Source: a virus (taxonomy: Duplodnaviria > Heunggongvirae > Uroviricota > Caudoviricetes). From it: DNA of 20,361 nucleotides. The translations under genes and the position numbers were made by a program. The DNA is taken from positions 1 to 20,361 of the IMG/VR virus record IMGVR_UViG_2734482780_000011; one strand, written 5' to 3'. Shown here one piece after another: positions 2,625 through 20,361 of this stretch. The notes under the pieces are model-generated. The model saw only the letters and a program-made list of their open reading frames with translations, had not been told where the DNA came from and made no database searches. Position 1 is the first letter of the stretch, and the number at the start of each line of letters is the position of its first letter.

Positions 2625-3197
2625 TTATATTTGAGATTCGATAGTTGATACAACGCGACCTTTTAACGAAATATCACTAACGTTACTTATAAAGCTTGTT
2701 AGGTTGTTTTCAATTTTTAGCTGACCAGCAGGCATGCGATACACTTTCCGAAACGATAAATTTCCATCAATTGATATTAACCAAGTCCCATCGGAATAGT
2801 TAGCATTTGAACAATCAACGAAATGAATTGTTTTTATATCTCTAATCACATGTAGATTATCGAAGCCTACGGGCAATAATTTATCGTCGAAGGTAACAAG
2901 TCCATCTTCGACAAGTACGCCATTTTTTAAAATATAGGACTGTAATTCTTTTACGCTATTAGATGACGTAGAGCCAAGAGTTTTAGAACCATTCCCTGTT
3001 ACTAGCCATTTGAGTGAGACGCCTGTCTCTAGCGCACACTGAATTATGTAGTCAGCAGGAAATGTATCTCGCAGGTAGCGGTTTGCCAAAGTACTACTGC
3101 TGATCCCCAATCGTTCACACAGCGCTTGTTTCGTCGTAACCCCATATGCTTCTAGCATACGCTCAATAGCTGCTTTTCCGCCTTTTCGCAAATCCAT
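2625..3197 (-). CDS. cI: Prophage immunity repressor CI (186-type, HTH N-terminus)
   Basis: ORF 2625..3299 (-). From the internal Met the sequence reads MDLRKGGKAAIERMLEAYGVTTKQALCERLGISSSTLANRYLRD...CALETG...WLVTG, an HTH repressor pattern like 186 CI. Start at 3197 gives 190 aa and leaves the operator/promoter region untranslated. Confidence 0.8.
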   Translation of the reverse strand: MDLRKGGKAAIERMLEAYGVTTKQALCERLGISSSTLANRYLRDTFPADYIIQCALETGVSLKWLVTGNGSKTLGSTSSNSVKELQSYILKNGVLVEDGLVTFDDKLLPVGFDNLHVIRDIKTIHFVDCSNANYSDGTWLISIDGNLSFRKVYRMPAGQLKIENNLTSFISNVSDISLKGRVVSTIESQI

Positions 3198-3205
3198 AAA
3201 ATTCC

Positions 3206-3276
3206 CGAAACGTGAGTAAATACCTTGACACTCACGTTTCGTGAGTTTAAATTCATCTCGAAACGTGAGTAATTCA
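3206..3276. promoter_or_regulatory. Lysis/lysogeny switch: candidate lytic promoter (-35 TTGACA 3225..3230, -10 TAAATT 3248..3253) with palindromic operator CTCACGTTTCGTGAG in the spacer, flanked by direct GAAACGTGAGTA half-site repeats
   Basis: Perfect inverted repeat ctcacg/cgtgag at 3231..3245 placed between the -35 and -10; GAAACGTGAGTA copies at 3206..3217 and 3262..3273. Position between divergent cI and apl matches 186/P2 switch architecture. Confidence 0.6.
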
Positions 3277-3320
3277 CTTCTTATCCCGGCTCGCCACAAG
3301 CCAATAGGAGATGTTGCATC

Positions 3321-3542: not shown

Positions 3543-3574
3543 TTCCATTTTGGGATACATCAGGGGTGTCGACT

Positions 3575-4084
3575 ATGTTTGATTACCAAGTTTCCAAACA
3601 TCCACATTTTGATGAAGCCTGTCGTGCATTCGCACTGCGCCACAACCTGGTGCAACTGGCAGAACGTGCAGGCATGAATGTGCAGATTCTGCGGAACAAG
3701 CTGAACCCAGCTCAACCTCATTTATTAACCGCACCAGAAATCTGGCTGCTTACCGATCTGACTGAAGATTCAACGCTGGTAGATGGTTTTCTGGCACAGA
3801 TTCATTGTCTGCCATGTGTACCGATTAATGAGGTAGCAAAAGAGAAACTGCCACATTACGTCATGAGTGCAACCGCAGAGATCGGGCGTGTTGCTGCAGG
3901 TGCGGTATCTGGCGATGTAAAAACCAGTACAGGTCGTCGTGATGCTATCAGCAGCATTAACTCTGTAACACGACTGATGGCGTTGGCTGCTGTTTCATTG
4001 CAGGCCCGTTTACAGGCTAACCCTGCGATGGCGAGTGCAGTTGATACCGTGACTGGCCTCGGTGCTTCATTCGGTTTGCTGTGA
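3575..4084 (+). CDS. cII: CII-like lysogeny establishment regulator (186-type)
   Basis: ORF 3566..4084; start at ATG 3575 with AGGGG upstream gives 169 aa, the size of 186 CII; position right after apl. Confidence 0.75.
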
Positions 4085-4091
4085 GGTGCTT

Positions 4092-4325
4092 ATGCTGACG
4101 AAAGAACCATCATTTGCGTCGCTGCTGGTAAAACAAAGTCCGGCAATGCACTACGGTCACGGCTGGATTTATTTACCTTGTGGGAAAAAGTGGCATCCAA
4201 GTTTTGAATTACAACCCCGGCAACAGGCTTACCGGGGAAGAAATAAAAAGCGATTCCTACAAAGATTTATGGTTAACGTGGCAAACAACCTGCGAACCAA
4301 GCGAAAAGTTTTTCTTGGAAGCTGA
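4092..4325 (+). CDS. Hypothetical small protein; its 5' part is repeated at 4828..4887
   Basis: ORF MLTKEPSFASLLVKQSPAMHYGHGW... starting at ATG 4092; 3' end overlaps the antisense 124-aa ORF, so it may be a disrupted gene copy. Confidence 0.3.
   Translation: MLTKEPSFASLLVKQSPAMHYGHGWIYLPCGKKWHPSFELQPRQQAYRGRNKKRFLQRFMVNVANNLRTKRKVFLGS
4109..4168. repeat. 60-bp direct repeat, copy 1 (partner 4828..4887, about 4 mismatches)
   Basis: atcatttgcgtcgctgctggtaaaacaaagtccggcaatgcactacggtcacggctggat versus the near-identical copy 2; weaker similarity continues a further 30 bp. Confidence 0.85.
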
Positions 4326-4647
4326 GGTTTACATCGTCAACCCGACCACAGGCAATAGCAGCTCTTTTGTAGGCAGGGTTTAACAAAGATCCGAATGTTG
4401 TGGAGTCAGAGTGATGCAAAGCTTTCAATTTTTGTGCAATGAACTGTGGAGACAATTCATCCTCGGCGTAAAGCAACTCACCATATTGTCGGCTTTGTAC
4501 GCTTGCTCGTTCCGCAATAATAGCTGGTTGCCATACAAGTTGGATTGCTGTCATTAATTTATCAGCTCGACCATGGAACGTTGCTGTCATTAGTTCAAGG
4601 TAATAACAGTAGTGTAATTGGAAGTATTCGGAGCTTTGTTTAGTCAT
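4273..4647 (-). CDS. Hypothetical 124-aa protein, antisense to the early operon
   Basis: ORF on the minus strand inside an otherwise rightward-transcribed early region, bracketed by the 60-bp direct repeats; no recognisable motif. Confidence 0.5.
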   Translation of the reverse strand: MTKQSSEYFQLHYCYYLELMTATFHGRADKLMTAIQLVWQPAIIAERASVQSRQYGELLYAEDELSPQFIAQKLKALHHSDSTTFGSLLNPAYKRAAIACGRVDDVNLSFQEKLFAWFAGCLPR

Positions 4648-4656
4648 GCCGGATTC

Positions 4657-4737
4657 CTATTTCTTCTCTTGCCCCGGTTCAGGCTGAGGTGCTGGAGCCG
4701 GGCGAGGGAGTACATGAAAGTTGTCTGTTTCTGACAT
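4657..4737 (-). CDS. Possible 26-aa proline-rich peptide (MSETDNFHVLPRPAPAPQPEPGQEKK) upstream of the 124-aa ORF
   Basis: Minus-strand ATG at 4737 preceded by AAGGAG at 7-nt spacing; stop TAG 10 nt before the 124-aa ORF start. Too short for the ORF track. Confidence 0.3.
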   Translation of the reverse strand: MSETDNFHVLPRPAPAPQPEPGQEKK

Positions 4738-4827
4738 CAGTTTTCTCCTTTGAGGGGTAGATGATTGTTAGCACAAATAGTCTACCACTGAGGCACGCGC
4801 CGGGCGTGTAGAAAAATTCCCGGCACA

Positions 4828-4887
4828 ATCATTTGCATCGCTGCTGGTAAAACAAAGCCCGGCAATGCACTACGGTCACGGCTGGAT
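4828..4887. repeat. 60-bp direct repeat, copy 2 (partner 4109..4168)
   Basis: See copy 1; this copy continues into a 41-codon ORF (4865..4990) ending at the start of the next early gene. Confidence 0.85.
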
Positions 4888-4977
4888 CATGGGTGAGGAT
4901 GGTAAACGCTGGCATCCATGTTATTCACAAGATGAATTGCTGTCTGAAGTGACCACGAGGAAACGGAGAAAGTCCAA

Positions 4978-5202
4978 ATGTATGCGGTAGAAAGTGAAGT
5001 GGTTTATCAGTTTCGTTACAGAGGGGATAGTTATTCAGTACCTGAAGATGATTTGCTCTGTTGTTATCCGTCGTTGTCGGGCGATGGCAGTTACTTTTTC
5101 ACACTAAAGGATGGGACGTTTTTACGGGGAGAGCAGGTTAAAGAGACGGTACGAAAAAATGTATCTCCCCTTGAGCGTTACCGTAAGAACAAAGAACGAT
5201 AG
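4978..5202 (+). CDS. Hypothetical early-region protein (74 aa)
   Basis: ORF with GGAGA ahead of the ATG; same strand as the early operon. Confidence 0.5.
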   Translation: MYAVESEVVYQFRYRGDSYSVPEDDLLCCYPSLSGDGSYFFTLKDGTFLRGEQVKETVRKNVSPLERYRKNKER

Positions 5203-5224
5203 TTGCGTTTTGGGGATATGAATT

Positions 5225-5566
5225 ATGGCAATTAATGGCGCTGCGGCGACTGTTCCATTAAGCCCCGGTGAACGCCTGAATGGACTTAATCACATTGCGG
5301 AATTAAGAGCGAAAGTTTTTGGCCTGAATATTGAGTCAGAGCTTGAGCGGTTTATTAAAGATATGCGTGATCCACGGGATATCAATAATGAACAAAATAA
5401 ACGGGCACTGGCTGCCATATTCTTTATGGCAAAAATTCCAGCTGAACGTCATAGCATCAGCATTAATGAGCTGACCACTGACGAAAAGCGGGAGCTGATT
5501 AAAGCAATGAATCATTTTCGTGCAGTGGTGAGCTTATTTCCCAGACGGCTAACCATGCCGAATTAA
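5225..5566 (+). CDS. Hypothetical early-region protein (113 aa)
   Basis: ORF in the early operon; no recognised motif. Confidence 0.5.
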   Translation: MAINGAAATVPLSPGERLNGLNHIAELRAKVFGLNIESELERFIKDMRDPRDINNEQNKRALAAIFFMAKIPAERHSISINELTTDEKRELIKAMNHFRAVVSLFPRRLTMPN

Positions 5567-5867: not shown

Positions 5868-6094
5868 TGGCTGATGCAATGGATCTCGTACAGCAGCGCG
5901 TTGAAGAAGAACGCCAGCGTCATATCCGTGCTGCCCGCGCCAAAACGCCGGGCGTATCCCGCGTGCTTTGCATTGAGTGCGAAGCACCAATTCCGCCAGC
6001 ACGACGTCGCGCCATTCCGGGTGTGCAGCTTTGCATTACCTGTCAGGAAATCGCAGAGCTGAAAGGCAAACATTACAACGGAGGTGCTGTATGA
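5867..6094 (+). CDS. TraR/DksA-family C4 zinc-finger protein
   Basis: CIECEAPIPPARRRAIPGVQLCITCQE contains the CxxC-(17)-CxxC zinc-finger pattern typical of phage TraR-like proteins; translationally coupled to its neighbours. Confidence 0.7.
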   Translation: MADAMDLVQQRVEEERQRHIRAARAKTPGVSRVLCIECEAPIPPARRRAIPGVQLCITCQEIAELKGKHYNGGAV

Positions 6095-6948
6095 GCACCA
6101 TCCTGAAATGGGCGGGTAATAAAACCGCCATTATGCCGGAACTGAAAAAATACCTTCCTGCTGGCCCGCGACTGGTTGAACCTTTCGCGGGTTCTTGTGC
6201 TGTGATGATAGAGACGGATTACCCCAGCTATCTTGTTGCGGATATTAATCCTGATTTAATCAACCTCTATAAAAAGGTTGCTGCTGATTGCGAGGCGTTT
6301 ATATCTCGTGCCAGAGCTTTATTTGAGGAAGCAAACAGGGAGGTGGCTTATTACAACATAAGGCAGGAGTTTAATTACTCCACTGAAATTACTGATTTCA
6401 TGAAAGCGGTATATTTCCTGTATCTCAATCGTCATGGTTACCGTGGGTTATGTCGCTATAACAAGAGCGGGCATTTCAACATTCCCTACGGGAATTATAA
6501 AAATCCGTATTTCCCTGAAAAAGAAATTCGCAAATTTGCAGAAAAAGCCCAGCGAGCAACGTTTATCTGCGCCAGCTTTGATGAAACGCTGGCGATGTTG
6601 AAGGCGGGGGATGTGGTGTATTGCGATCCGCCTTATGACGGTACGTTTTCCGGCTATCACACTGATGGCTTCACTGAGGATGACCAGTATCACCTGGCAT
6701 CCGTTCTTGAACATCGATCATCTGAAGGTCATCCGGTCATTGTTTCTAACAGTGACACATCCCTGATTCGTTCGCTGTATCGCAATTTCACTCACCACTA
6801 CATCAAGGCAAAACGCAGCATCGGCGTGTCGGCTGGCGAGAGTAAATCTGCAACAGAAATCATTGCTGTTTCCGGGGCGCGCTGCTGGGTGGGATTTGAT
6901 CCTTCGCGTGGCGTGGATAGTTCTGCTGTGTACGAGGTGCGTGTATGA
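6091..6948 (+). CDS. dam: DNA adenine methyltransferase (Dam-like N6-adenine MTase), no adjacent restriction gene
   Basis: N-terminus [26 protein letters not shown]-binding FAGSCAV, catalytic DPPY ([10 protein letters not shown]); GGAGGTG precedes the ATG at 6091; ORF-track start at 5977 is an upstream extension. Confidence 0.9.
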
Positions 6949-7757
6949 GTCATGACGATATGAGCAACTCTAGCGGCTTTAACGAGGCCGCTGCAGCATT
7001 TTCATGGAACGGCCCGAAAAAGGCCATTAACCCTTATCTGGACCCGGCGGAAGTTGCGCCGGAGTCTGCACTTTCAAACATGATCACTCTGTACGCTGCC
7101 GATAACGAGCAGGAACAGCTGCGCCGCGATGCACTGAGTGAGCAGGTCTGGGAGCGTTATTTCTTTAATGAATCCCGTGATCCTGTCCAGCGCGAAATGG
7201 AGCAGGATAATCTCATTAGTCGGGCAAAGCTGGCGCATGAGCAGCAGCGTTTTAACCCGGACATGGTCATTCTGGCGGACGTCAGCGCCCAGCCCACCCA
7301 CATCAGCAAGCCGCTGATGCAACGTATCGAATACTTCAGCAGCCTGGGCAGGCCAAAGGCTTATTCCCGCTATTTGCGTGAGACGATTAAGCCATGTCTG
7401 GAGCGACTGGAGTATGTACGCGACAGTCAGCTATCCGCTTCTTTCCGTTTTATGGCAAGCCATCAAGGGCTTGAGGGCCTGCTGATCCTGCCTGAAATGA
7501 GTCAGGATCAGGTAAAACGCCTGTCCACCCTGGTACGCCAGGTGAAGCTGAAAAGGCGTAAAGACTACAAACAGCGAATTACAGATCATCAGCATCAGCA
7601 GCTCGTCTATGAACTGAAGTCCAGAGGATTTGATGGCAGCGAGAAAGAGGTCGATTTACTCCTTCGCGGTGGCAGTATTCCGTCAGGAGCAGGCCTGCGT
7701 ATTTTCTATCGGAACCAGCGTTTGCAGGAAGATGATAAGTGGCGGAACCTGTATTAA
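6945..7757 (+). CDS. Hypothetical 270-aa protein
   Basis: ORF start overlaps the dam stop (ATGA at 6945..6948); acidic/glutamine-rich, no recognised domain; does not look like a rolling-circle replication initiator. Confidence 0.55.
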
Positions 7758-8109: not shown

Positions 8110-8343
8110 ATGCGCATTGAAATAATGATCGATAAAGAGCAGAAGATTAGCCAGTCTACCCTGGACGCCCTTGAATCCGAGCTTTACCGCAATCTGCGCC
8201 CCCTGTATCCCAAAACGGTAATTCGCATTCGCAAAGGTAGCTCTAACGGTGTGGAACTAACCGGACTGCAACTGGATGAAGAAAGAAAACAAGTGATGAA
8301 AATTATGCAGAAGGTGTGGGAGGACGACAGCTGGCTGCATTAA
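8110..8343 (+). CDS. DinI-family protein
   Basis: MRIEIMIDKEQKISQSTLDALESELYRNLRPLYP...KVWEDDSWLH aligns by eye with E. coli DinI (MRIEVTIAK...AIDALAGELSRR...ETWESADDW). Confidence 0.8.
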   Translation: MRIEIMIDKEQKISQSTLDALESELYRNLRPLYPKTVIRIRKGSSNGVELTGLQLDEERKQVMKIMQKVWEDDSWLH

Positions 8344-8749
8344 GAAACGTTGCCCCCAGGAGGATTCATTCTGATGGGGGCTAGTTTGGGTAGCGAGTGA
8401 AACGAGGCGTAAGGTGGGCGGCCATTTTGATAAGTGATTGTACGATTTGTGTTGTGAGTTCAACGGGACGATGCAACGCTATCCTTAATCAAGGGGACGT
8501 TGCTCATACCCATCGATGCAATGAAAATCCATACTCATGGGGAAGACCAGAATGTCCCTGCCTTTTTCATTTTGTTCAGCACATGCACTATGGCCATTGC
8601 CTTCCCAAGCTAGCTATCGTAATCACTCAGCGTCAGTAAACTACTGAAAAATTGTTTTACCTTGTATATCAATAATGCCAAATCATACCCAAAAAATCGA
8701 AAATAATTAGATCGACAGGCAGAAGGCAATGTGAATAATCTTAAAAACC

Positions 8750-8779
8750 TTGACTGTCAGTGAGGTTTGGTTCTATAAA
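8750..8779 (+). promoter_or_regulatory. Candidate promoter of the darTG operon (-35 TTGACT, 18-nt spacer, -10 TATAAA)
   Basis: Read from the sequence, about 30 nt upstream of the darT start. Confidence 0.4.
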
Positions 8780-8810
8780 TAGACTTACGAATTTGAAAGG
8801 ATGAGTTGAA

Positions 8811-9392
8811 ATGAGCGAAAGGAAAAGAATTGAAGATCAGTATCTTCTCTATCATTTAACATGTATGGATAATCTACCTAGTATTTTAGACACAGGATTA
8901 AGATCTCGTGCATCAGTAAAAGGTGAGTTTGTTGATGTGGCCGACGGTGAAATAATAACAGGTCGCGAAGCATTAAATTTGCAAACAATGGTTCCTTTTC
9001 ATTTCTTTACTAAGAATCCATTTGATGGAAGAGTCCTGAAAGATCATAAGGAAAAATCATTTTGTATTATTTCGGTTTGTCGGGCATTTGCCAAAGAAAA
9101 TGGTTGGAAAGTTATCCCTAAACATCCATTATCCACCAGTTCTGTTATAGACCTCTTAGATTATGAACAAGGAATGGCCCAAATTGACTGGGAGCTAATG
9201 AATATAAGGGATTATAAAAATGCAGAATGCAAATCTGTATGTATGGCTGAGTGTTTATCAAGTGTAACGGTCGAGCCGAAAAATTTCCATTGCATCTTTG
9301 TCAAAAATGATAACGAAAAAAAATATGTTGAAGGGTTGATAAAACAACAAGGATTAAGTATATTGATAACGATCAACACTTATATGTTCTAA
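8811..9392 (+). CDS. darT: DarT-like ssDNA ADP-ribosyltransferase toxin (DUF4433 family)
   Basis: LYHLTCMDNLPSIL, VPFHFF, DWELM and a late acidic segment match my recollection of DarT signatures (IYHITHIDNLKGIL, VPFYF, DWEAM); AT-rich; immediately followed by a macrodomain gene. Confidence 0.7.
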   Translation: MSERKRIEDQYLLYHLTCMDNLPSILDTGLRSRASVKGEFVDVADGEIITGREALNLQTMVPFHFFTKNPFDGRVLKDHKEKSFCIISVCRAFAKENGWKVIPKHPLSTSSVIDLLDYEQGMAQIDWELMNIRDYKNAECKSVCMAECLSSVTVEPKNFHCIFVKNDNEKKYVEGLIKQQGLSILITINTYMF

Positions 9393-9396
9393 TTCT

Positions 9397-10368
9397 ATGA
9401 TTAAGTATGCAAGCGGAAATCTTCTAAACTCTACATCGCAAGCTCTTGTGAATGCTGTAAACTGCCAAGGAGTCATGGGAAAGGGTATTGCTTTGGCTTT
9501 TAAAGAAACTTTTCCCTATAATTTCGAAGTTTATAAGAGAGCATGCGCCACTGGTACAATGAAAATTGGACAGGTTTTAATTGTAGAGGAAAAGGGAAAA
9601 ATAATTGTAAACTTTCCCACTAAAGATAGTTGGAGAAAAAAATCAACATATGATTTTATCTCGCAAGGCCTTGAATCTTTAGCAAAAATTATAGATGAAA
9701 AAAAAATTACATCAATATCAATACCACCTTTAGGCTGTGGTAATGGGGGCCTCGATTGGAATAAGGTTGAGGCTCTTATTTTAAAAACTTTTCAAAATTT
9801 AGATAATGTTGATGTGGTAATTTATCCGCCTGCAACTAACAATCAACTTTCAAAAAATAAAAATGTTATTAATGCTAAGCATCTTTTGGTTCACTACGCC
9901 TATGGAAAATTAAAAGTTAAGCAAAAATATTCCCTTTATACAGTTTTTTATATTTGCGAATGTATTGAGAAAGCAAATCTTTTTTTATTCGATTTTAAAC
10001 ATGGTCGGCCATACTCTTCTGAGTTAGAAAATATTATGAAGGATATAGCAAACCTTAAAGTTGAGTTGCAAGGAGATTTTGATGCTTTTATTGAAGATTA
10101 TATTAATACTCATCAATCCAAAGAGTTACAAACCGAGTTTGGTAAACTAATCTCAACTTTAAATCCAAGTATAAGTTTGCTCAATGCTCTTAAAAATAAG
10201 ATTGATTATATAGATAGCGTACATGTGATCACGAGAATTGCTAAAGAAAAAGATCATGGCTTGCATATTGACAATTTCAAAGAATATGAAAATATTGTGC
10301 AGCATTTAATTAAAAATGGATTGGTAATCGAAGATATTTTTAACGAACTAAAAATAAAGGGAAGTTAG
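9397..10368 (+). CDS. darG: DarG-like macrodomain antitoxin
   Basis: N-terminus GNLLNSTSQALVNAVNCQGVMGKGIALAF is the macrodomain nucleotide-binding signature (N-x-x-N / G-x-G loop); 4 nt downstream of darT; AT-rich. Confidence 0.75.
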   Translation: MIKYASGNLLNSTSQALVNAVNCQGVMGKGIALAFKETFPYNFEVYKRACATGTMKIGQVLIVEEKGKIIVNFPTKDSWRKKSTYDFISQGLESLAKIIDEKKITSISIPPLGCGNGGLDWNKVEALILKTFQNLDNVDVVIYPPATNNQLSKNKNVINAKHLLVHYAYGKLKVKQKYSLYTVFYICECIEKANLFLFDFKHGRPYSSELENIMKDIANLKVELQGDFDAFIEDYINTHQSKELQTEFGKLISTLNPSISLLNALKNKIDYIDSVHVITRIAKEKDHGLHIDNFKEYENIVQHLIKNGLVIEDIFNELKIKGS

Positions 10369-10920
10369 TAGCGCTATTTTCAATTTTTTTGCTGAAATTG
10401 CGCATGCACACTCTCACGCATTATAGATGCGGCGTTAATCCCGCCAGGAGTGTTGTTTAATAAATTGAACTATTTCTGCATTGAAGGATCAACTTACGCA
10501 TTCGCTGACAACGCAGGCACTCTCCTGGCTAAGCAGAAATTCAGAGTAACCAACTGGCACTTTTACAACAATTTTCTTATCAGTTGCGGCTCCATGACTT
10601 TCTGGTGGGATAACAAAGCAATTAAGGCGTGGTATTGTAAGTATCCCGCATAATCATGCTAGTAACATTTGTCCCCCATGTAACCTAATTAAGGCAACTT
10701 CCGCTCTTCGCTCACAGTGAACCTCCATGTTTGTAAACCCGTATATTTCGTTTTTTAAGTGGTCATTCAGATACGGATTTTCACTTCTCTTGGCTGTGCA
10801 TGACTATGCTGCATGAAATTGCATGATCGTTTGAGGATCGTTTTTGCTGAGGCCCCCCAGAACTGGCGGGCTTTCGCTTATGTCATGCAGGTGCATGAAA
10901 ATCACTGCATAAAGCGGGCA

Positions 10921-10939
10921 GGCGTGGCGGGGATACGAG
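10921..10939. other. Candidate cos site (P2/186-type cohesive end region)
   Basis: ggcgtggcggggatacgagcgcgcgct resembles the P2/186 cohesive-end region as I recall it (GGCG[A/T]GGCGGGGAAAGCA...GCGCGCT); recalled, not searched. Four TGCATGA copies lie 20 to 125 bp upstream. Confidence 0.5.
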
Positions 10940-11091
10940 CGCGCGCTAAGTCATATAAGAGTTATATATTGATTTGATTGCTGGACATGCATACAGTATC
11001 GCTCTATCATCTAATAAATCTTAGAGTATTTGACAATGTTTGGATAAAATGGAACCTAACTTATTCATAATCCGCTAAACAGGGATGTCAG

Positions 11092-12006
11092 ATGCCATAC
11101 CAATTGGTAGAGCTTAGCCCCGTAGCTAACGATCTTGAACAGTTAGGAACCAAAGAGAAGTTTTGGTTCTATTTCTCCGATGACACTGTAAATTTGCAGT
11201 TGTTTAAGTACTCTAGGCCAGATACTGGCGAGCATTGGTCTGAAAAGTGTGCTGCTGAGTTATGTCATTTGCTTAACATTCCACATGCTAGCTATGATTT
11301 GGCGCGATACAATGGTCGATTCGGTGTGGTGACTCAGAATATCATTCCATCTGGTTTCCGGATGGTAATGGGAAATGAAGTGCTTCACAGTTCGACATTC
11401 GATTATCCTGGGCCTTTACAAGCCGGGGAAAAGCCGGTAAGGGTCAGAGAACACACTGTCACAAGGGTATTGGGTTGTTTAGATAGGGAATCTATCAAGC
11501 CTCCTCCGAGTGTATATGATCTAACCGGGCTAAATGCAGCAGATGTATTTTGTGGATATTTGATGCTCGATGCACTTGTGAGTAATCAAGATCGCCATCA
11601 TGAAAATTGGGCGATCATGCTTAACAATGAAACTGGTGAGCAGTTTTTGTGTCCAACATACGATCATGCCGCTAGTTTAGGAAGGGAGATGTTAGATGAT
11701 GAGCGTAACGAACGGCTTAATACTAAAGATAAAAATCGACAAATCCCATGTTTTGTAAGAAAAGCTCGCTCTGAGCTATTCAAAGCAAAAACTGATAAAA
11801 AGCCCTTGCTGACCGTTGAAGCATTTCAACATGCAGTTGAAGGGAGAGTTGCCGCTCGCGACCATTGGTTAGGTAAGTTGAGCGTTTTAACAGAAGATTC
11901 CATTACAGATGTGTTTAACCAAGTGCCTTCATCGTGTATATCCGACAGTGCACGTAGATTTGCAACGTTAATGGTAATGGAAAATCGCAGAAGGTTACTA
12001 GAATGA
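11092..12006 (+). CDS. HipA-like serine/threonine kinase, short form lacking the N-terminal domain (304 aa)
   Basis: GTKEKFWF (compare HipA GAQEK), catalytic-loop-like LVSNQDRHHENWAIM (compare HipA D-x-H-x-K-N) and LCPTYDHAASLG (compare HipA P-x-YD) in the HipA order and spacing. Confidence 0.65.
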   Translation: MPYQLVELSPVANDLEQLGTKEKFWFYFSDDTVNLQLFKYSRPDTGEHWSEKCAAELCHLLNIPHASYDLARYNGRFGVVTQNIIPSGFRMVMGNEVLHSSTFDYPGPLQAGEKPVRVREHTVTRVLGCLDRESIKPPPSVYDLTGLNAADVFCGYLMLDALVSNQDRHHENWAIMLNNETGEQFLCPTYDHAASLGREMLDDERNERLNTKDKNRQIPCFVRKARSELFKAKTDKKPLLTVEAFQHAVEGRVAARDHWLGKLSVLTEDSITDVFNQVPSSCISDSARRFATLMVMENRRRLLE

Positions 12007-12743
12007 CTAATACAAACTCCGTTTACGTCGCATGGCAGGCACCAGATACCAGAGACTGGCATGTTGTTGGTAACTTGCAAGAGCGCAAATCGGGGTATGT
12101 TTTCAGGTATACCAAAGGTGCTCTTAAATCTACTAAATTTACAAAGTTTAGCGGCATGAGTGATGTTCGTGAAACTTATGTTTCGGAAGAATTGTTTCCT
12201 CTTTTTAAAAATCGCCTTTTATCACCGAGACGTCCAGAGTATCCGAGTTTCATTAAATGGCTTGGATTTGAAGAAGATAAGGTAAATCCTATCGATATTC
12301 TTGCTCGCTCGGGAGGCCTACGAAGCACTGATCAGCTGCAGATTTTCAAAAAAATTGATGTTGATTCTGATGGTAACTTTGAGCATTTTTTCTTCTTACA
12401 TGGACTTGGTTACTTAAATAGCTTAGCTAATGCTCGTGTATCTGAATTGAAACCGGGGCAAATTTTGCGTCTTTGCTTGGATCTTCAAAATGAATACGAT
12501 GGGGATGCTGTTGTCGTTCGTGCAGATAAACCAGCTGAAATCGTTGGTTATTGCCCTAGGTATTTAAGTAATGATATCAAGAAGATGTTATTGGATGATC
12601 CAAAATCAATCACTTTAACGGTCGAAAAGATTAGCGATGATGCTCCTCATAACTATCGGTTATTATGTAAATTATCAGGAGTACTAAGCCAAGCCTGTCA
12701 ATCGACGCTGATTCCTCAGGATGAGTTTGAACCTATTGAGTAA
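12003..12743 (+). CDS. Two-domain partner: HipA-N/HipS-like N-terminal domain fused to a C-terminal HIRAN-like domain (246 aa)
   Basis: Start overlaps the kinase stop (ATGA). N-terminus VYVAWQ...VGNLQ...YVFRY...LFPLFKNRLLSPRR resembles the HipA N-terminal domain. C-terminus KPGQILRLCLDLQNEYDGDAVVVRADKPAEIVGYCPRYLSNDIKKMLLDD fits the HIRAN pattern. Confidence 0.55.
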   Translation: MTNTNSVYVAWQAPDTRDWHVVGNLQERKSGYVFRYTKGALKSTKFTKFSGMSDVRETYVSEELFPLFKNRLLSPRRPEYPSFIKWLGFEEDKVNPIDILARSGGLRSTDQLQIFKKIDVDSDGNFEHFFFLHGLGYLNSLANARVSELKPGQILRLCLDLQNEYDGDAVVVRADKPAEIVGYCPRYLSNDIKKMLLDDPKSITLTVEKISDDAPHNYRLLCKLSGVLSQACQSTLIPQDEFEPIE

Positions 12744-12748
12744 ATGAA

Positions 12749-12774
12749 GAAAAGCCACCAAACGGTGGCTTTTC
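12749..12774. terminator. Bidirectional rho-independent terminator between the HipA-like module and Q
   Basis: 11-bp perfect stem gaaaagccacc / ggtggcttttc with a 4-nt loop, T-rich flanks on both strands, between convergent stops at 12743 and 12778. Confidence 0.7.
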
Positions 12775-12777
12775 TTA

Positions 12778-13818
12778 TTATGGGACTATATCTAGCGAGT
12801 AGGTATTAAACTGTATCGCCTCCTTGCCAAGCCAATCATTCATCTCCTGTAATCGCTTTTGTAGTGGCATTAGCTCATTTCGGACGAATACACGGCTTGC
12901 CTTCTCCACATCCCCAAACCCCCCAACATTATTCGGCATAATCCCCATCATTTGCGGCGGCACACGATGCGCCGCCATCATGTCGTCCCGGCTTACGTTC
13001 TTGATGTTCAGAAACTCATCCTTTGCCGCCACTTCTGACAGCGGGATGATCTGAAGCCCGTCCTTTTTGCCGTTAGGCGAGTACATAAACAGGTTGCGGA
13101 AGTTGCCCGGACCTTTGGCGCTTTTCATCGCGTTGCGGAGGTTGTTCACATCCTCCTGGTTCTGAGCGGCATCGGTCATGTACATTATGAATCCTGCATG
13201 GCTGCCATTAATATAATATTTGCGTCGGAACAGCGTGGCGGACTCGTTGAGCAGGGCTGACGGAATGGCAGAAAGATAGCCGGGCAGGCCGTAGATCTCC
13301 TGGTTGATATCGGGTTCCATCAGATGAAAGATGCTGCCTTTCGTGAACTGATACGGCTGGGTTGTCATACCGTATTGCACAAACCAGTAGGTATCCAGGT
13401 CTAACCCGCGTCGGGTGTATTTTGCCAGAGCAGGCTCAAGGGCGATAACTTCACCGAAGCGGTTCGTGCGTTTCTCCAGGTAGGCGTTACCAAATACCAG
13501 ATAGTCCTGCACAAAACGTGAAAAAGCCTGCTGGCTAAGCAGCGGGTGAGGGATGTAGGTGCTGGTTAGAATGTTGCATTTCACTGCAATGGGTGAGCTG
13601 TGATGCACGGCGGCGCGGAAGGTTCGCGCCAGTCCGTCAAAGCTGACGGGCGGCTCATACCAACGGTCCATCTGTACGCATTCCACATAGTCCAGTAATT
13701 CTCGGCGGTCCAGTACTGGAATGGGATCGCCGAAGCTGAATGCTTCGGCTGAAGTCTGGCTTTTATGCTGGGTCTGGTTCTGCGACGCAGCGCGGTTCTT
13801 CTTACTCTTTCCCATCAA
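12778..13818 (-). CDS. Q: Portal protein (P2 gpQ-like)
   Basis: 346 aa, close to the size of P2 gpQ; start overlaps the stop of the upstream terminase fragment as in the P2 PQ operon; 3' end points toward the cos-like site. Confidence 0.8.
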   Translation of the reverse strand: MMGKSKKNRAASQNQTQHKSQTSAEAFSFGDPIPVLDRRELLDYVECVQMDRWYEPPVSFDGLARTFRAAVHHSSPIAVKCNILTSTYIPHPLLSQQAFSRFVQDYLVFGNAYLEKRTNRFGEVIALEPALAKYTRRGLDLDTYWFVQYGMTTQPYQFTKGSIFHLMEPDINQEIYGLPGYLSAIPSALLNESATLFRRKYYINGSHAGFIMYMTDAAQNQEDVNNLRNAMKSAKGPGNFRNLFMYSPNGKKDGLQIIPLSEVAAKDEFLNIKNVSRDDMMAAHRVPPQMMGIMPNNVGGFGDVEKASRVFVRNELMPLQKRLQEMNDWLGKEAIQFNTYSLDIVP

Positions 13819-14231
13819 AAAATCTCCACAATATTGCTGGTATTGGCGGACTCGCCCTGCAGCGGTTCGTTAAACAGTGCGTGCATTGTTGCCCAGGCCA
13901 GATCGGCGTGGCTGGCTTCTTCGCTGCGGCTGGCTTCATAGGTCGGGCGGTTGCCACTGGCGGTGGTGGCGCGACGGATTGCCATAAATGACTGCGCTAT
14001 GTCGGTGTGTCCGGCGTCAAACTCCAGACGGCGGTGGCTGATAATGTCGTAGGCCTTGAGTACCAGAGCGTTTTTAACGTTGGGGTTGTAGACAAACTCC
14101 CGGACGGCAGGAAAGAACGCTTTCACGTTCTCATAAACCCCGTGACCGACGCCTGTCGAGTCAATGCCGATATAGGTCACGTTGTACTGCTCGGTCAGTT
14201 TTTTGATTCCGCCCTTAATCATCTCAACCAT
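13815..14231 (-). pseudogene. P: Terminase large subunit (gpP-like), C-terminal 138-aa remnant
   Basis: Only the C-terminal part of what should be an approximately 590-aa protein; coupled to Q; no upstream start or ATPase region present. Confidence 0.65.
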
Positions 14232-14298: not shown

Positions 14299-15618
14299 AT
14301 GACAGCCGCTGACAGAACGTGCCCCCGCGCACGGGCGGCACGGGGTGGCGAAAGGCACAGCCACATCAAAACCCCGTCCACCGCCCTTTATTTCAGGAGA
14401 AAGCAGCATGAAGTTTGTTGCGCCAGAACAGGCAACGCCGCAGGTTTACTTACTGCGCCGTTGTCGTCTTTGCGCCGCACGGCATCACTGACGGGAAATG
14501 TCCTGAAAACTGTAGCAGGTGCGCCGGTTGCACTTTTGCGGTCTGGATTATCCGGTTTACGTGCTGTTGCTGTTATGTTTATGAATCCTCTGGCGGTACT
14601 GCGCGGTGGACTGGCCGCCGCAGGCACGGTGCTGCGAGTACTGGCATCTGGTCCACTGGCGATGCTGCGCGTTGCCCTGTATGCCATATCTGGTCTGTTA
14701 GGTGCTCTGCTCAGTCCGATAGGTCTTGTGGTTACTGCACTGGCGGGCGTGGCGCTGGTTGTCTGGAAATACTGGCAACCCATCACCGCATTTCTCGGTG
14801 GCGTGGTGGAAGGATTCAAAGCGGCGGCAGGTCCCATCAGTGCAGCGTTCGAACCGCTTAAGCCCGTGTTCCAGTGGATTGGCGACAAAGTGCAGGCGCT
14901 GTGGGGCTGGTTTACTGATCTGCTGACGCCCGTTAAGTCGACCTCTGCCGAACTGCAGAGCGCAGCGGCAATGGGGCGGCGATTCGGGGAGGCACTGGCG
15001 GAAGGGCTGAATATGGTCATGCATCCGCTGGACTCCCTGAAATCCGGCGTTTCCTGGTTGCTGGAGAAGCTCGGCATTGTCAGTAAAGAGGCCGCAAAGG
15101 CAAAACTGCCGGAAAGCGTGACGCGTCAGCAACCTGCGACGGTGAATGCAGACGGTAAAGTGATGATGCCATCGGGTGGTTTTCCATCATGGGGATATGA
15201 CTTTGCGGGGATGTATGACAGCGGCGGGTATATCCCGCGCGGGCAGTTTGGCATCGTCGGTGAAAACGGGCCGGAAATTGTTAACGGCCCGGCAAATGTG
15301 ACCAGCCGGAGAAATACAGCTGCACTGGCTGCCGTTGTTGCCGGAATGATGGGCGTTGCTGCCGCGCCAGCAGAGCTTCCACCGTTGCACCCTTTGGCAC
15401 TTCCCGCGAAAGGTGGAGAAGCAATTGTGAGTCGCGCAGCCACTGTGCCGCTCGTTCAACGGATTGAGGCACCGACGCAGATCATCATTCAGACGCAGCC
15501 AGGACAAAGTGCGCAGGATATTGCGCGGGAGGTGGCACGCCAGCTTGATGAACGTGAACGCAGGCTGAAGGCAAAAGCCAGGAGTAACTACAGCGATCAG
15601 GGGGGATACGACGCATGA
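14299..15618 (+). pseudogene. T: Tail tape measure protein (gpT-like), C-terminal portion only
   Basis: Gly/Ala-rich helical repeats and GGYIPRGQFGIVGENGPEIV near the C-terminus; 439-codon frame versus about 800 aa expected; followed directly by U and D. Confidence 0.65.
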
Positions 15619-16100
15619 TGATGGTGCTGGGATTGTACGTGTTTATGCTGCGCACCGTTCCGTATCAGGAACTGCAGTATCAACGCAGCTGGCGACATGC
15701 GGCAAACAGTCGGGTAAACCGACGTCCGTCCACGCAGTTTCTGGGACCGGAAAACGACATGCTGACGCTTTCCGGTGTTCTTATGCCGGAAATAACAGGC
15801 GGCAGGCTGTCGTTGCTGGCACTGGAGCAGATGGCAGAACAGGGGAAAGCATGGCCCCTGATTGAAGGCAGCGGCACGATTTACGGCATGTATGTGATTG
15901 AGGGACTGAATCAGACTAAAACGGAGTTTTTCCGCGATGGTATGCCGCGCCGGATTGAGTTCACCCTGTCGCTCAAACGGGTGGATGAATCCCTGTCCGA
16001 TATGTTCGGTGATCTCAGTGCGCAGCTGAATAATTTGCAGGATACGACAACGTCTGCCTTAAGCGATATCAGTAAAACGGTGGGAGGGCTGCTGTCGTGA
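15615..16100 (+). CDS. U: Tail protein gpU-like
   Basis: 161 aa, same size and position as P2 gpU between T and D; start overlaps the T stop. Confidence 0.8.
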   Translation: MMMVLGLYVFMLRTVPYQELQYQRSWRHAANSRVNRRPSTQFLGPENDMLTLSGVLMPEITGGRLSLLALEQMAEQGKAWPLIEGSGTIYGMYVIEGLNQTKTEFFRDGMPRRIEFTLSLKRVDESLSDMFGDLSAQLNNLQDTTTSALSDISKTVGGLLS

Positions 16101-17197
16101 ATTTCAGCTCTGAACTGCTTAACAAAGGCAACAAAACTCCGGCATTCAGCATCAGTATTGAGGGTAAGGATATCACCACTGTGCTGGATAACCGCCTGAT
16201 GAGTCTGACGCTGACGGACAATCGGGGCTTTGAAGCGGACCAGCTTGATCTGGAGCTGGACGACGCCGACGGAAAAATCGTGCTGCCGCGCCGTGGTGCG
16301 GTCATTACGCTGGCGTTGGGCTGGAAGGGGCAGTCGCTTTTCCCGAAAGGAGCATTCACGGTGGACGAGATTGAACACACTGGCGCACCGGACCGCCTGA
16401 CTATCCGGGCGCGAAGTGCTGATTTTCGTGAAACCCTGAATATCCGCCGTGAAAAATCGTGGCACAAGACCACCGTTGGGGAAGTGGTGAAGGAAATAGC
16501 TGTGCGGCACAAACTGAAGATGGCATTGGGTGAAGACCTGTCGGATAAACCTGTGGAACATATAGACCAGACCAATGAGAGTGACGGCAGTTTTCTGATG
16601 CGGCTGGCGCGCCAGTACGGTGCTATTGCGTCGGTGAAAAATGGCAATCTGTTATTCATCCGGCAGGGACAGGGTAAAAGCGCCAGCGGTAAACCACTAC
16701 CGGTTATCACTATCACACGTAAGGACGGCGACAGTCACCGCTTTACCCTGGCAGATCGCGGAGCCTACACGGGCGTAATTGCCAGCTGGTTGCATACCCG
16801 CGAACCCGCGAAGAAAGAAAGCACCACGGTGAAGCGTAAGCGCAGGACTAAGAAGCAGAAGAAAGAGCCGGAAGCGAAGCAGGGCGATTACCTGGTGGGT
16901 ACAGATGAAAACGTGCTGGTACTTAATCGCACCTATGCCAACCGGAGCAACGCCGAACGGGCGGCGAAAATGCAGTGGGAACGCCTGCAACGTGGCGTTG
17001 CGTCATTCTCGCTACAACTGGCAGAAGGTCGGGCGGATCTCTACACGGAAATGCCAGTGAAAGTCAGAGGCTTTAAACAGCCGATAGATGATGCGGAATG
17101 GACTATTACCACCCTGACGCATACTGTCAATCCGGATAACGGTTTTACGACCAGTCTGGAGCTTGAAGTGAAGATTAATGATTTCGAAATGGAATGA
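16097..17197 (+). CDS. D: Tail protein gpD-like
   Basis: 366 aa, GTGA overlap with the U stop, located immediately before ogr as in P2/186. Confidence 0.8.
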   Translation: MNFSSELLNKGNKTPAFSISIEGKDITTVLDNRLMSLTLTDNRGFEADQLDLELDDADGKIVLPRRGAVITLALGWKGQSLFPKGAFTVDEIEHTGAPDRLTIRARSADFRETLNIRREKSWHKTTVGEVVKEIAVRHKLKMALGEDLSDKPVEHIDQTNESDGSFLMRLARQYGAIASVKNGNLLFIRQGQGKSASGKPLPVITITRKDGDSHRFTLADRGAYTGVIASWLHTREPAKKESTTVKRKRRTKKQKKEPEAKQGDYLVGTDENVLVLNRTYANRSNAERAAKMQWERLQRGVASFSLQLAEGRADLYTEMPVKVRGFKQPIDDAEWTITTLTHTVNPDNGFTTSLELEVKINDFEME

Positions 17198-17287
17198 TTC
17201 TTCGTAATAGAGAACTTTTAAGTTTTCAAAATGGAATAATGCGGTATCATTATTGTGAATTTAGCAAAAATGGGGAGAACTCGAAAA

Positions 17288-17506
17288 ATGATGATTTGCC
17301 CACTGTGTGGAAGTGCCGCCCATACTCGCAGCAGTTTTCAGGTATCTTCATTGACCAAAGAGCGTTACAACCAGTGCCAGAACATTAACTGCAGCCATAC
17401 TTTTGTTACCCATGAAACTTTTGTTCGTTCGATTGCAACGCTAAAAGAGTCAAATCCGGTTCAGCCGCATCCAATGAAATCAGGACAGGTGGCGCTCTCT
17501 CTTTGA
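17288..17506 (+). CDS. ogr: Late gene transcription activator Ogr/B (zinc finger)
   Basis: MMICPLCGSAAHTRSS...CQNINCSHTF matches the Ogr CxxC-N22-CxxxxC pattern; 72 aa from ATG 17288 (GGGGAGA upstream). Confidence 0.85.
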   Translation: MMICPLCGSAAHTRSSFQVSSLTKERYNQCQNINCSHTFVTHETFVRSIATLKESNPVQPHPMKSGQVALSL

Positions 17507-17741: not shown

Positions 17742-19427
17742 TTATCCTAATCCTGGCCATACCATGACGATGATTGTCCCTGCCAGCGTCAGCAGGACGT
17801 TGGCGATTGCGTAGGTGCCCGCATAGCCCAGCGCAGGGATGTTACTGCGAGCTGTATCACTGATGATCTCCATTGCCGGCGCGCAGGTGCGTGCGCCCAT
17901 CATTGCGCCGAACAACAGTGCGCGGTTCATTCGCAATACATAAGCACCGAACAAGAAACAGATAACCACGGGCACAAGACTGACAATTAATCCGGCAATC
18001 AACATCTGACCGCCAATCGCGCCCAGGCCGTTATTAATACCGCTACCGGCGCTCAGACCAACGCCTGCCATAAACACCATCAAGCCGAACTCTTTCACCA
18101 TGCTTAATGCACCTTGCGGAATGTAACCGAAGGTCGGGTGGTTAGCACGCATAAAGCCCAGCATAATTCCGGCGAATAACAACCCGGCAGCGTTCCCCAT
18201 GCCGAAACTGAATGTGCTGAACTGGAAGGTGATCATCCCGATCATCAGCCCAATAACAAAGAAGGCGCAAAATGCCAGCAGGTCAGTGACCTGGCTGTGA
18301 ATCGAGATAAAGCCGATGCGATCGGCGATGGTTTTTACGCGACGGGCATCACCGCTGACTTGTAAAACGTCACCTTTGTTAAGCACGACGTTGTCATCTA
18401 TCGGCATCTCAATCTGGCTACGAATGACGCGGTTAAGGAAGCAACCGTGATCGGTCAACTTCAGTTGTGCGAGACGTTTACCTACAGCGTTATGGTTTTT
18501 AACGACCACTTCTTCAGTGACGATACGCATGTCGAGAAGGTCACGATCGAAAACTTCTTTACCGTTACGGAAGCTGGGATCGAGTCGGGCATGGGCGTCG
18601 GGATAGCCTACCAACGCTATTTCATCGCCCATTTGTAGCACGGCATCACCGTCTGGATTTGCCAGAATCCCGTTACGTCGAATACGTTCAATGTAGCAGC
18701 CGGTTTGTCGATAAATACCCAGTTCACGCAGATTTTTGCCGTCGGTCCAGGCCACCAGCTCCGGGCCGACGCGATAGGCGCGGATCACCGGTAAATAAAC
18801 CTTACGGTTGGCATCAGTGTCCAGGCCACGTTCGCGGGCGATTTGCTGGGCGCTGGTCTGTAAGTCCTGATGCTGCAATTTCGGCAAGTAACGCGCACCA
18901 ACAATCAAACTCACCAGACCGATTAAATAGGTTAAGGCATACCCGAGGCTCAGATTATCCAGTGCCAGTGAGAGCTGCCTGCTTTCCATGCCGGAATGAC
19001 GCAGTGTATCGCCAGCACCGACCAGAACCGGTGTCGACGTCATAGAGCCTGCTAACATACCGGCCGTCAGGCCAATATCCCAGCCAAACAGCTTACCTAA
19101 CCCTAAGGCGATCACCAGCGCACTGCCAACCATCACCAGTGCTAACATTAGGTAATTTTTCCCATCGCGAAAAAAAATGGAAAAAAAGTTCGGTCCGGCT
19201 TCGACCCCGACGCAGAAAATAAACAGCATAAAGCCAAGATTAAGCGCATCGGTGTTAATGCTGAAATGTTGTTGGCCTAATAACAGCGATACGACTAAAA
19301 CGCCAATGGAATTACCCAGTTGGATCGAACCAAGTCGTAACTTTCCGAGACATAGCCCAAGCGCGAGGACCACAAATAATAACAGAATGTAATTCCCATT
19401 TAACAATTCGGCGACGTTTATATTCAC
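17742..19427 (-). CDS. ybjL: Putative AAE-family transporter YbjL (chromosomal)
   Basis: 561-aa membrane protein starting [33 protein letters not shown], recognised as E. coli YbjL; followed by ybjM and grxA in the K-12 order. Confidence 0.9.
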
Positions 19428-19696
19428 GGAGGCTAACTTCTTGTTTACTAGTAAGCTGTTGAAAGAAATGGTAATTTACGATAATGTTTTTTACCAGAAT
19501 TCAGGGCGCAGATTCATTCAGCGCACCTAAACGATAGTAAAGTAACAATATATTTTACTAGTGTAATCACATTAGGTATCAACGGCTATATGAATTGCGT
19601 TGGCCTATATTAGCATGGAATGCGAAGCGGCTTTATCTTACTGAACGCCACACTGGCGAAAAATGTGTTCGATAGACGCAGTGTCAGGAGGAACGA

Positions 19697-20074
19697 GTGA
19701 AACATAAACAACGTTGGGCGGGGGCAATCTGCTGTTTTGTCCTCTTCATTGTGGTGTGCCTTTTTCTGGCGACGCACATGAAAGGCGCTTTTCGGGCTGC
19801 CGGGCATCCTGAAATCGGCTTGCTATTTTTCATTCTTCCTGGAGCAGTGGCCAGCTTCTTTTCACAGCGTAGAGAAGTCCTGAAACCTCTGTTTGGCGCA
19901 ATGCTGGCGGCACCCTGTTCGATGCTCATTATGCGGCTGTTTTTTTCACCGACGCGCTCATTCTGGCAAGAGCTGGCATGGTTACTAAGCGCGGTGTTCT
20001 GGTGTGCGCTGGGGGCACTGTGTTTCTTATTTATCAGTAGTTTGTTTAAACCACAGCACAGAAAAAATCAGTAA
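19697..20074 (+). CDS. ybjM: Inner membrane protein YbjM (chromosomal)
   Basis: 125-aa hydrophobic protein between ybjL and grxA, as in E. coli K-12. Confidence 0.85.
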   Translation: MKHKQRWAGAICCFVLFIVVCLFLATHMKGAFRAAGHPEIGLLFFILPGAVASFFSQRREVLKPLFGAMLAAPCSMLIMRLFFSPTRSFWQELAWLLSAVFWCALGALCFLFISSLFKPQHRKNQ

Positions 20075-20094
20075 AGCCCTCAACGCGAGGGCTT
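20074..20094. terminator. Hairpin terminator between convergent ybjM and grxA
   Basis: 8-bp stem aagccctc / gagggctt with loop aacgc; T-run on the minus strand side. Confidence 0.5.
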
Positions 20095-20103
20095 GTCAGA
20101 CGA

Positions 20104-20361
20104 TCAGGCGTCCAGATTTTCTTTCACCCATGCAGCAAAATCGGTATAGCCGCCGATATGTTGCTGATCGACAAAAATCTGCGGCACGGTTTCTACGGGT
20201 TTACCTGCCTTTTGTTGTAGATCTTCTTTAGTGATCCCTTCCGCACGAATATCTACATACTGATACTGAAAATCATCGCGTTCATTGCTCAATTTCTCAG
20301 CCAGATCTTTTGCACGCACACAGTAAGGGCAACCCGAACGACCAAAAATAACGGTTTGCAT
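20104..20361 (-). CDS. grxA: Glutaredoxin 1
   Basis: MQTVIFGRSGCPYCVRAKDLAEKL... with the CPYC active site; 85 aa; start codon at the window edge. Confidence 0.95.
   Translation of the reverse strand: MQTVIFGRSGCPYCVRAKDLAEKLSNERDDFQYQYVDIRAEGITKEDLQQKAGKPVETVPQIFVDQQHIGGYTDFAAWVKENLDA

Follow-up and report, generated by a model that had tools for sequence, protein, structure and literature searches.

A DarTG2-type anti-phage toxin-antitoxin pair next to cos in a deletion-ridden P2-like prophage of Escherichia coli

The stretch of DNA analysed here, called the window, comprises 20,361 nucleotides (nt), positions 1 to 20,361 of the IMG/VR virus record IMGVR_UViG_2734482780_000011, and it was found to hold a P2-like (Peduoviridae) prophage between rcdA and ybjL of Escherichia coli. 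The prophage carries an operon of two genes, darT and darG, which we regard with high confidence as a DarTG2 anti-phage toxin-antitoxin (TA) system serving as lysogenic-conversion cargo in the cos-proximal hotspot between gpA and gpQ. The first gene, darT (8811-9392, +), starts with ATG and encodes a toxin of 193 amino acids (aa) assigned to the DarT2-type single-stranded DNA (ssDNA) ADP-ribosyltransferases, and the second, darG (9397-10368, +), also with an ATG start, encodes a two-domain antitoxin of 323 aa. The darT stop codon TAA (9390-9392) is followed by ttct and then by the ATG of darG, leaving the two genes adjacent and co-oriented on one strand with a gap of 4 nt. The fraction of guanine plus cytosine (GC) across the darTG island (8501-10500) is 0.29-0.37, as compared with 0.43-0.54 upstream and 0.39-0.45 downstream. 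The open reading frame (ORF) calls and the GC profile confirm what an earlier note on this DNA had described, namely an AT-rich pair of genes 4 nt apart.

As judged from primer sites and allele distribution, the pair can be equated with the experimentally validated E. coli DarTG2 (LeRoux et al. 2022, Nat Microbiol 7:1028). A later report from the LeRoux laboratory (PMC11257639; final version PMC11825919) gives primers to "amplify darTG2 including promoter", and the gene-specific part of primer 44, CAAAAAATCGAAAATAATTAGATCGACAGG, matches positions 8690-8719 (+) with 0 mismatches, while that of primer 45, TCAGCAAAAAAATTGAAAATAGCGCTAC, matches 10368-10395 (-), again with 0 mismatches. The reverse primer site, which marks the 3' end of the published clone, lies in a T-rich stretch past the darG stop. 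The window was also shuffled 100 times, and none of the shuffles gave a comparable primer match. In a sample of 5,426 complete E. coli genomes the darTG locus was present in 10, all at least 99.4% identical and forming one allele cluster, and a sensitive blastn search for more distant E. coli relatives, such as that of enteropathogenic E. coli (EPEC), returned the same 10 genomes only. Since the primers match exactly and E. coli holds a single cluster, the published construct must carry the allele cluster of the window. Between the window and E. coli S40, 3 of 1,706 nt differ across the cloned interval, promoter region included. The LeRoux DarTG2 (PMC11257639/PMC11825919 and the HIDEN-SEQ preprint) likewise consists of DarT and a macrodomain DarG with the exact primer sites; no difference was detected at the compared sites, and the window copy is set apart by lying in a deletion-ridden prophage.

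The functional properties of this allele cluster are known from the literature. Expressed from its native promoter, the clone protects against T5 and SECphi18 (PMC11257639), and later papers from the same laboratory describe escape of SECphi18 through DNA-polymerase mutations and a stronger DarTG2 defence when host growth is slowed. T4 resists DarTG2 by means of the macrodomain protein AdfM/tk.4, and a review describes release of DarT on infection and ADP-ribosylation of phage DNA. The view that DarTG is a known anti-phage family rather than a new system is upheld here, the window pair being of the same allele cluster as the tested E. coli DarTG2. The DarTG pair, its hotspot position and its gene arrangement are all already known, and there is nothing new in this finding.

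The identity of the toxin is evident from hidden Markov model (HMM) searches, in which the darT product matched Pfam DarT PF14487 (formerly DUF4433) with 78.2 bits and an E-value of 9.2e-22 (cut-off 22.5), the alignment spanning residues 14-192 and profile positions 1-199 of 201. The PADLOC DarT profile was matched at 2.2e-36, and the protein and WP_016239482 of E. coli S40 agree in every residue (100% identity). The catalytic residues of DarT, the NAD-binding His of the YH[IL]T motif, an Arg at about 51/52 and a Glu, are present as H15, R52 and E147, which are invariant in an alignment of 25 sequences of the subfamily. In PDB 7omu, whose chain was crystallised as an E-to-A mutant, the substituted Ala is the residue that faces E147, and R52 falls within one position of Thermus R51 in the alignment and has the same number as R52 of the E. 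coli C7 DarT1. Among solved structures the one closest to the toxin is that of the Thermosipho DarT-macrodomain fusion (7omu), matched at 1.4e-4 with the single sequence and at 8.7e-13 with a 25-member profile. The Thermus DarT (7omv) aligns over residues 13-70, the N-terminal third with the NAD-binding motif (E 4e-3), and the C7 DarT1 (8baq) at residues 8-38 only (E 7e-4). The clade to which the toxin belongs is well populated, with 456 homologue clusters at E-values of 1e-5 or below, and the best 120 of these 456 are proteins of about 190 aa (most 175-215 aa) from many genera. The PHROGs collection contains no DarT family. No close homologue of the toxin was found among 50,697 deposited phage records, in which the sole match was 38% identical and came from a faecal contig; DarTG of the window type is therefore known solely from prophages inside bacterial genomes.

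The antitoxin was identified in the same way. The darG product matched Pfam Macro PF01661 over aa 18-127 with 68.5 bits and an E-value of 6.2e-19 (cut-off 22), and the PADLOC DarG profile at 9.8e-81 over aa 1-306 of 323. With these significant matches to PF14487/DUF4433 and Macro, the HMM searches agree with the assignment of the two genes to DarT and to a macrodomain protein that the earlier note had made from the letters. DarG aligns from residue 1 with the macrodomains of Mycobacterium tuberculosis (Mtb) DarG (PDB 5m3i, 2.7e-43) and Thermus aquaticus (Taq) DarG (PDB 5m31, 3.3e-37). It keeps the motifs GVMGKG, GNGG and FPTK, and K76 in the latter corresponds to the catalytic K80 of Thermus DarG, making the antitoxin a macrodomain protein, not a NADAR protein, with its catalytic lysine in place. 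The layout is that of an N-terminal macrodomain ADP-ribosylglycohydrolase (aa 1-148) followed by a C-terminal DarG-specific domain. The DarG-specific profiles run well past the macrodomain, and by homology a C-terminal DarT-interacting domain is predicted; among the PDB matches of the window DarG there was none to a solved DarG C-terminal domain. The window and S40 antitoxins differ at 1 of 323 residues (I272T).

The annotated start of DarG varies, since RefSeq places it at M27 (297 aa) in strains LR-46 (position 8931 of the locus sequence) and 2022CK-00450 (position 5153) and at M1 (323 aa) in S40, which in the window amounts to a choice between 9475 and 9397. A truncated DarG in LR-46 was considered and rejected, as its DNA contains the whole ORF of 323 aa and only the start codon chosen by the annotator differs; in 2022CK-00450, for which only the annotation was seen, the 297-aa DarG is presumed to be full-length in the DNA as well. 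The start at 9397 is favoured because the Mtb and Thermus proteins align from residue 1, and the 297-aa annotation would cut into the macrodomain.

The region upstream of darT (8690-8810, +) lies inside the published clone and holds the native promoter. The earlier note had credited the operon with a promoter of its own, and this stands insofar as the published native-promoter clone begins at 8690 and a functional promoter must hence lie within 8690-8810, whereas the sequence by itself is no proof, the consensus scan being at chance level. A candidate sigma-70 promoter may be read at 8750-8779 (+) as TTGACT (8750-8755) and TATAAA (8774-8779) with 18 nt between them, and the position 8750 at which the earlier note let the locus begin is that of this putative -35 hexamer TTGACT. 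The consensus scan offers TCGACA-16-AATAAT at 8712-8739 (+) as an alternative. The Shine-Dalgarno sequence AAGGA (8797-8801, +) precedes the darT ATG by 9 nt. Operator-like repeats were looked for in the promoter region and none were found. In 2022CK-00450, one of the 10 darTG genomes, an insertion sequence (IS) of the IS1A type is located between DinI and darT (positions 3636-4333 of the locus sequence, about 8660-8675 of the window). A knock-out of darTG by this IS1 was considered and rejected, as the coordinate estimate places the element upstream of darT and outside the cloned promoter region; lying just upstream of 8690-8810, it has probably not inactivated DarTG2 in that strain.

From these features and the published work a course of events may be proposed. 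In the uninfected lysogen, darT and darG would be transcribed from their own promoter within 8690-8810, and translation of darG is probably coupled to that of darT, since the gap is 4 nt and darG is without a Shine-Dalgarno sequence of its own. DarG would restrain DarT in two ways, the macrodomain (K76) stripping ADP-ribose from DNA and the C-terminal domain binding DarT. When a sensitive phage infects, DarT would be freed and would transfer ADP-ribose from NAD+ to bases of the phage DNA where this is single-stranded. The base modified by the DarT2 class is thymidine, and a thymidine/TNTC specificity is expected, by class, of this divergent DarT too. Replication of phage DNA would then be blocked, and transcription less so, with the outcome that no viable progeny is formed, as in abortive infection.

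Several points weigh against this reading. The DarT score for the NCBIfam equivalog NF048013 (toxin_DarT) was 53 bits against a cut-off of 150, and DarG scored 230.9 bits over aa 2-265 for antitoxin_DarG NF048014 against a cut-off of 250. The Thermus DarT aligns over the N-terminal third only, making the transfer of TNTC-thymidine specificity by homology weak. Identity with the LeRoux clone is deduced from two primer sites and the single allele cluster, not from the full insert sequence. Promoter-like sites in the consensus scan numbered 11, compared with 14.9 expected from shuffles, which is no enrichment. The surrounding prophage is defective, and expression of darTG in the source strain is thus a prediction. 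The NCBIfam scores below cut-off place the pair in a divergent DarTG2 subclade and do not contradict its membership in the broader DarTG2 class.

The class assignment itself follows from the antitoxin. According to Schuller 2023 it is the antitoxin that separates the classes, a NADAR protein defining DarTG1 (guanine) and a two-domain macrodomain DarG defining DarTG2 (thymine), and by this definition the present pair is of the DarTG2 type because its antitoxin is a macrodomain protein and not NADAR. No NADAR match was found in the antitoxin, and the pair does not belong to DarTG1 (DarT1-NADAR). It shares with the DarTG1 of E. coli C7 (DarT1 and NADAR) a DarT-family toxin that ADP-ribosylates ssDNA and a role as anti-phage TA system, but differs in having a macrodomain in place of NADAR, in that DarT1 modifies guanine, and in that DarT1 matches the window DarT over the N-terminal 30-40 residues only. 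With the canonical DarTG systems of Thermus aquaticus, M. tuberculosis and EPEC (Jankevicius 2016, Schuller 2021) it has in common an ADP-ribosyltransferase-fold DarT with catalytic Glu and Arg, a DarG that by homology has two domains, with the FPTK lysine (Taq K80, here K76), and the order darT-darG, whereas the window DarT is shorter (193 aa) and divergent, and the pair is phage-borne and AT-rich.

It could be argued that the pair is DarTG1-like, modifying guanine, or has some other specificity, and that the toxin is mislabelled as a thymidine-specific DarT. This DarT is indeed divergent and below the equivalog cut-off, and the similarities to Thermus DarT, confined to the N-terminus, and to C7 DarT1 are about equally weak. 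We nevertheless consider such a mislabelling very unlikely, as the antitoxin is a macrodomain protein matching Mtb DarG, with no NADAR, and as DarG was found not to act on ADP-ribose linked to guanine, nor NADAR enzymes on ADP-ribose linked to thymine (Schuller 2023). In addition, the best full-length structural relative of the toxin is the Thermosipho DarT-macrodomain fusion, and the LeRoux laboratory itself calls DarTG2 thymidine-modifying (PMC11257639).

The DarTG2 pair is positioned just before cos. The P2 cos 19-mer was not found in the window at up to 3 mismatches; local alignment to the P2 cosR/cosL junction located the cos region at 10889-10947 (+). Its core, GGCGTGGCGGGGATACGAG at 10921-10939, is a 19-nt cohesive end that differs from that of P2 by 5 mismatches, and in an alignment with the annotated P2 and 186 cos sites the first 13 nt of the core equal the physical end of phage 186. 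The cos block is 88-95% identical in 93 records of P2-like phages, and conservation stops at about 10947-10954. From the darG stop to cos there are 553 nt, and this interval harbours a 108-nt remnant of an IS5/IS1182-family transposase (about 10525-10632, +; coordinates carried over via a 99.3% collinear alignment). The remnant, annotated as incomplete, is present at the homologous spot in all three other darTG copies examined (S40, LR-46 and 2022CK-00450), and it moves together with darTG as a single block and may mark the way in which darTG entered the slot.

The hotspot is flanked on the left by a conserved DinI-like gene (8110-8343, +; Pfam DinI 1.3e-22), homologous to WP_001217575 of S40, and on the right by the likewise conserved portal gene gpQ (12778-13818, -; Pfam Phage_portal 3.7e-19), collinear with the portals of S40 and LR-46. 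The cargo is accordingly found beside cos in a P2-like (Peduoviridae) element, with gpA on one side of it and gpQ on the other, and the content between these flanks is variable, as is seen in S40, LR-46, LR-71-1, GF130, the Klebsiella phage 4LV2017 (a retron) and P2 (tin/old). In the P2 record tin and old lie between gene A and cosR, and the gpA-gpQ interval of P2-like phages has been described as a defence hotspot beside cos (Rousset 2022, Vassallo 2022). The placement proposed in the earlier note is hereby substantiated in each of its parts: the pair is truly pre-cos with cos at 10921-10939, the "SOS module" on its left is the DinI-like gene, and the slot is that of P2 tin and old, a defence hotspot. 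Like tin and old, darTG is non-essential lysogenic-conversion cargo in a slot that follows gene A and precedes cos/gpQ; unlike them, it encodes unrelated proteins and is read rightward, whereas tin and old are read leftward from a promoter near cos. The same set of genes is tabulated in Table S5A of Rousset 2022 (WP_016239482, Macro, WP_040079441, the HIRAN protein WP_000185757 and DinI), in which WP_040079441 and WP_000185757 are the kinase and HIRAN proteins of a 99.9%-identical module in strain LR-71-1, and the gene arrangement of the window has therefore already been catalogued.

The window differs from the P2 hotspot also in having cargo on the gpQ side of cos. There, a HipA-like (HipI-like) kinase gene (11092-12006, +; PADLOC PDC-M03A 2e-122) overlaps by 4 nt the gene of a HIRAN-domain protein (HipS-like/HipN; 12003-12743, +; PDC-M03B 3e-93, Pfam HIRAN 1e-13). 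The pair matches the hipIN organisation described by Gerdes et al. 2021, with a HipI kinase and a HipS-like/HIRAN HipN, and would by its sequence constitute a second TA-like module, which is present in 21 of the 5,426 genomes. The homology between window and S40, 99.3% from position 7534, ends at 10947, about 8 nt past the cos core. darTG is accompanied by three different post-cos cargos in S40, LR-46 and the window, and the kinase/HIRAN pair by a different pre-cos gene in LR-71-1, meaning that the two sides of cos assort independently in S40, LR-46, LR-71-1 and the window, which are few genomes. This pattern suggests that the hotspot is made up of two slots whose cargo is exchanged separately, cos being where the boundary of recombination between them lies. 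A small chance is accorded to the combined alternative that the enterobacterial DarT2 clade of about 190 aa has another DNA motif or base than TNTC-thymidine, or that the hotspot consists of two such cos-separated, independently exchanged slots, and the identity of the DarTG pair is unaffected by either.

The hipN-like gene and gpQ converge, and a perfect hairpin, aaaagccacc-aaac-ggtggctttt (12750-12773), lies between them. It sits where P2 has the terminator tQ and probably works in both directions. The hairpin is absent from the list of the consensus terminator scan, and the count in that scan, like that of promoters, was not above the shuffled expectation.

The prophage that carries the DarTG2 pair is decayed. 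Its left part comprises the integrase (1-1068, -), an ORF of 488 aa (1143-2609, -), CI (2625-3299, -), a CII-like gene (3566-4084, +), DUF5347 (5225-5566, +), Dam (5977-6948, +) and a remnant of gpA (6945-7757, +). To the right of the portal gene are a C-terminal fragment of the terminase (13815-14231, -), a tape-measure fragment (14299-15618, +), gpU (15615-16100, +), gpD (16097-17197, +) and Ogr (17255-17506, +), followed by the host genes ybjL (-), ybjM (+) and grxA (-) within 17742-20361. Three deletions were recognised by comparison with intact relatives. The first is an in-frame internal deletion of 1,602 nt in gpA, which leaves 270 of 804 codons (junction 7534/7535) and by position would take the region that has the ori nick site in P2. 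The second begins within gpP, the terminase gene, and reaches as far as the 3' end of gpM (junction 14207), and the third runs from the gpL start to the middle of the tape-measure gene (junction about 14431-14437), of which the C-terminal half remains. The genes for head and lysis have been lost, as have the majority of those for the tail. Still present are int, CI, darTG, the hipIN-like pair, portal, gpU, gpD and ogr, and from this gene content the element should be unable to replicate, to package DNA or to build particles.

This decay has a bearing on what the pair does for its carrier. One may propose that it acts mainly as an addiction module, stabilising the prophage remnant by post-segregational killing, and that defence is secondary. 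That a type II-like TA pair has stayed intact in a prophage that no longer has a working gpA, the bulk of its terminase gene, its head and lysis genes or the majority of its tail genes would be in line with such a role, as would the second, hipIN-like TA module that adjoins darTG. We find it unlikely as the main role, given that the same allele cluster on a plasmid defends a prophage-free host against phage, that P2-like prophages which seem to be intact, for instance the one in S40, carry darTG as well, and that the slot is a documented defence hotspot. Addiction and defence are in any case not mutually exclusive. That darTG is nearly unchanged in a decayed prophage fits the retention of useful cargo for defence and/or addiction, without showing which.

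The three large deletions, together with promoter-like sites not above chance, may also be taken to mean that the pair is a dead relic whose genes look intact and are silent or inactive. The chance of this is very slight in our estimation, considering that DarT is 100% identical to the copies in intact prophages, that DarG differs from them at the single residue and the S40 cloned interval from that of the window at 3 nt only, and that the catalytic residues of both proteins are intact. Because an active toxin with an inactive antitoxin would be lethal, darT and darG are under joint constraint.

Apart from the DarTG2 pair and the module beyond cos, two other stretches of the prophage deserve mention. 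S40 and LR-46 have little or nothing that corresponds to the early-operon stretch 4169-5224, from CII-like/Fil to DUF5347, and the ORF of this stretch at 4273-4647 (-, 124 aa) matches only PHROG 6315, of unassigned function. In GF130 a similar reverse-strand hypothetical gene splits fil, and the stretch may be another small moron insertion. The other is the 488-aa ORF between int and CI, of about 30% GC, for which searches of Pfam, PADLOC, PHROGs and NCBIfam gave no match. A single one of the 5,426 E. coli genomes contains it, and there it occupies the corresponding site of an intact prophage. Homologues of the 488-aa protein form 17 clusters only, all annotated as hypothetical. An int-cI hotspot has been described in Vibrio P2-related phages (Rousset et al. 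2022), and this tube-like/HEPN protein has the look of a HEPN-type effector that has not been catalogued so far and that fills a third cargo slot, being the sole item in the window that is possibly novel.

Here, a native context is supplied for a widely used laboratory construct, in that DarTG2 is seen to be P2-prophage cargo situated just upstream of cos. That darTG persists in a prophage which has lost the functions for replication and packaging, for head and lysis and for most of the tail fits the domestication of defence cargo.

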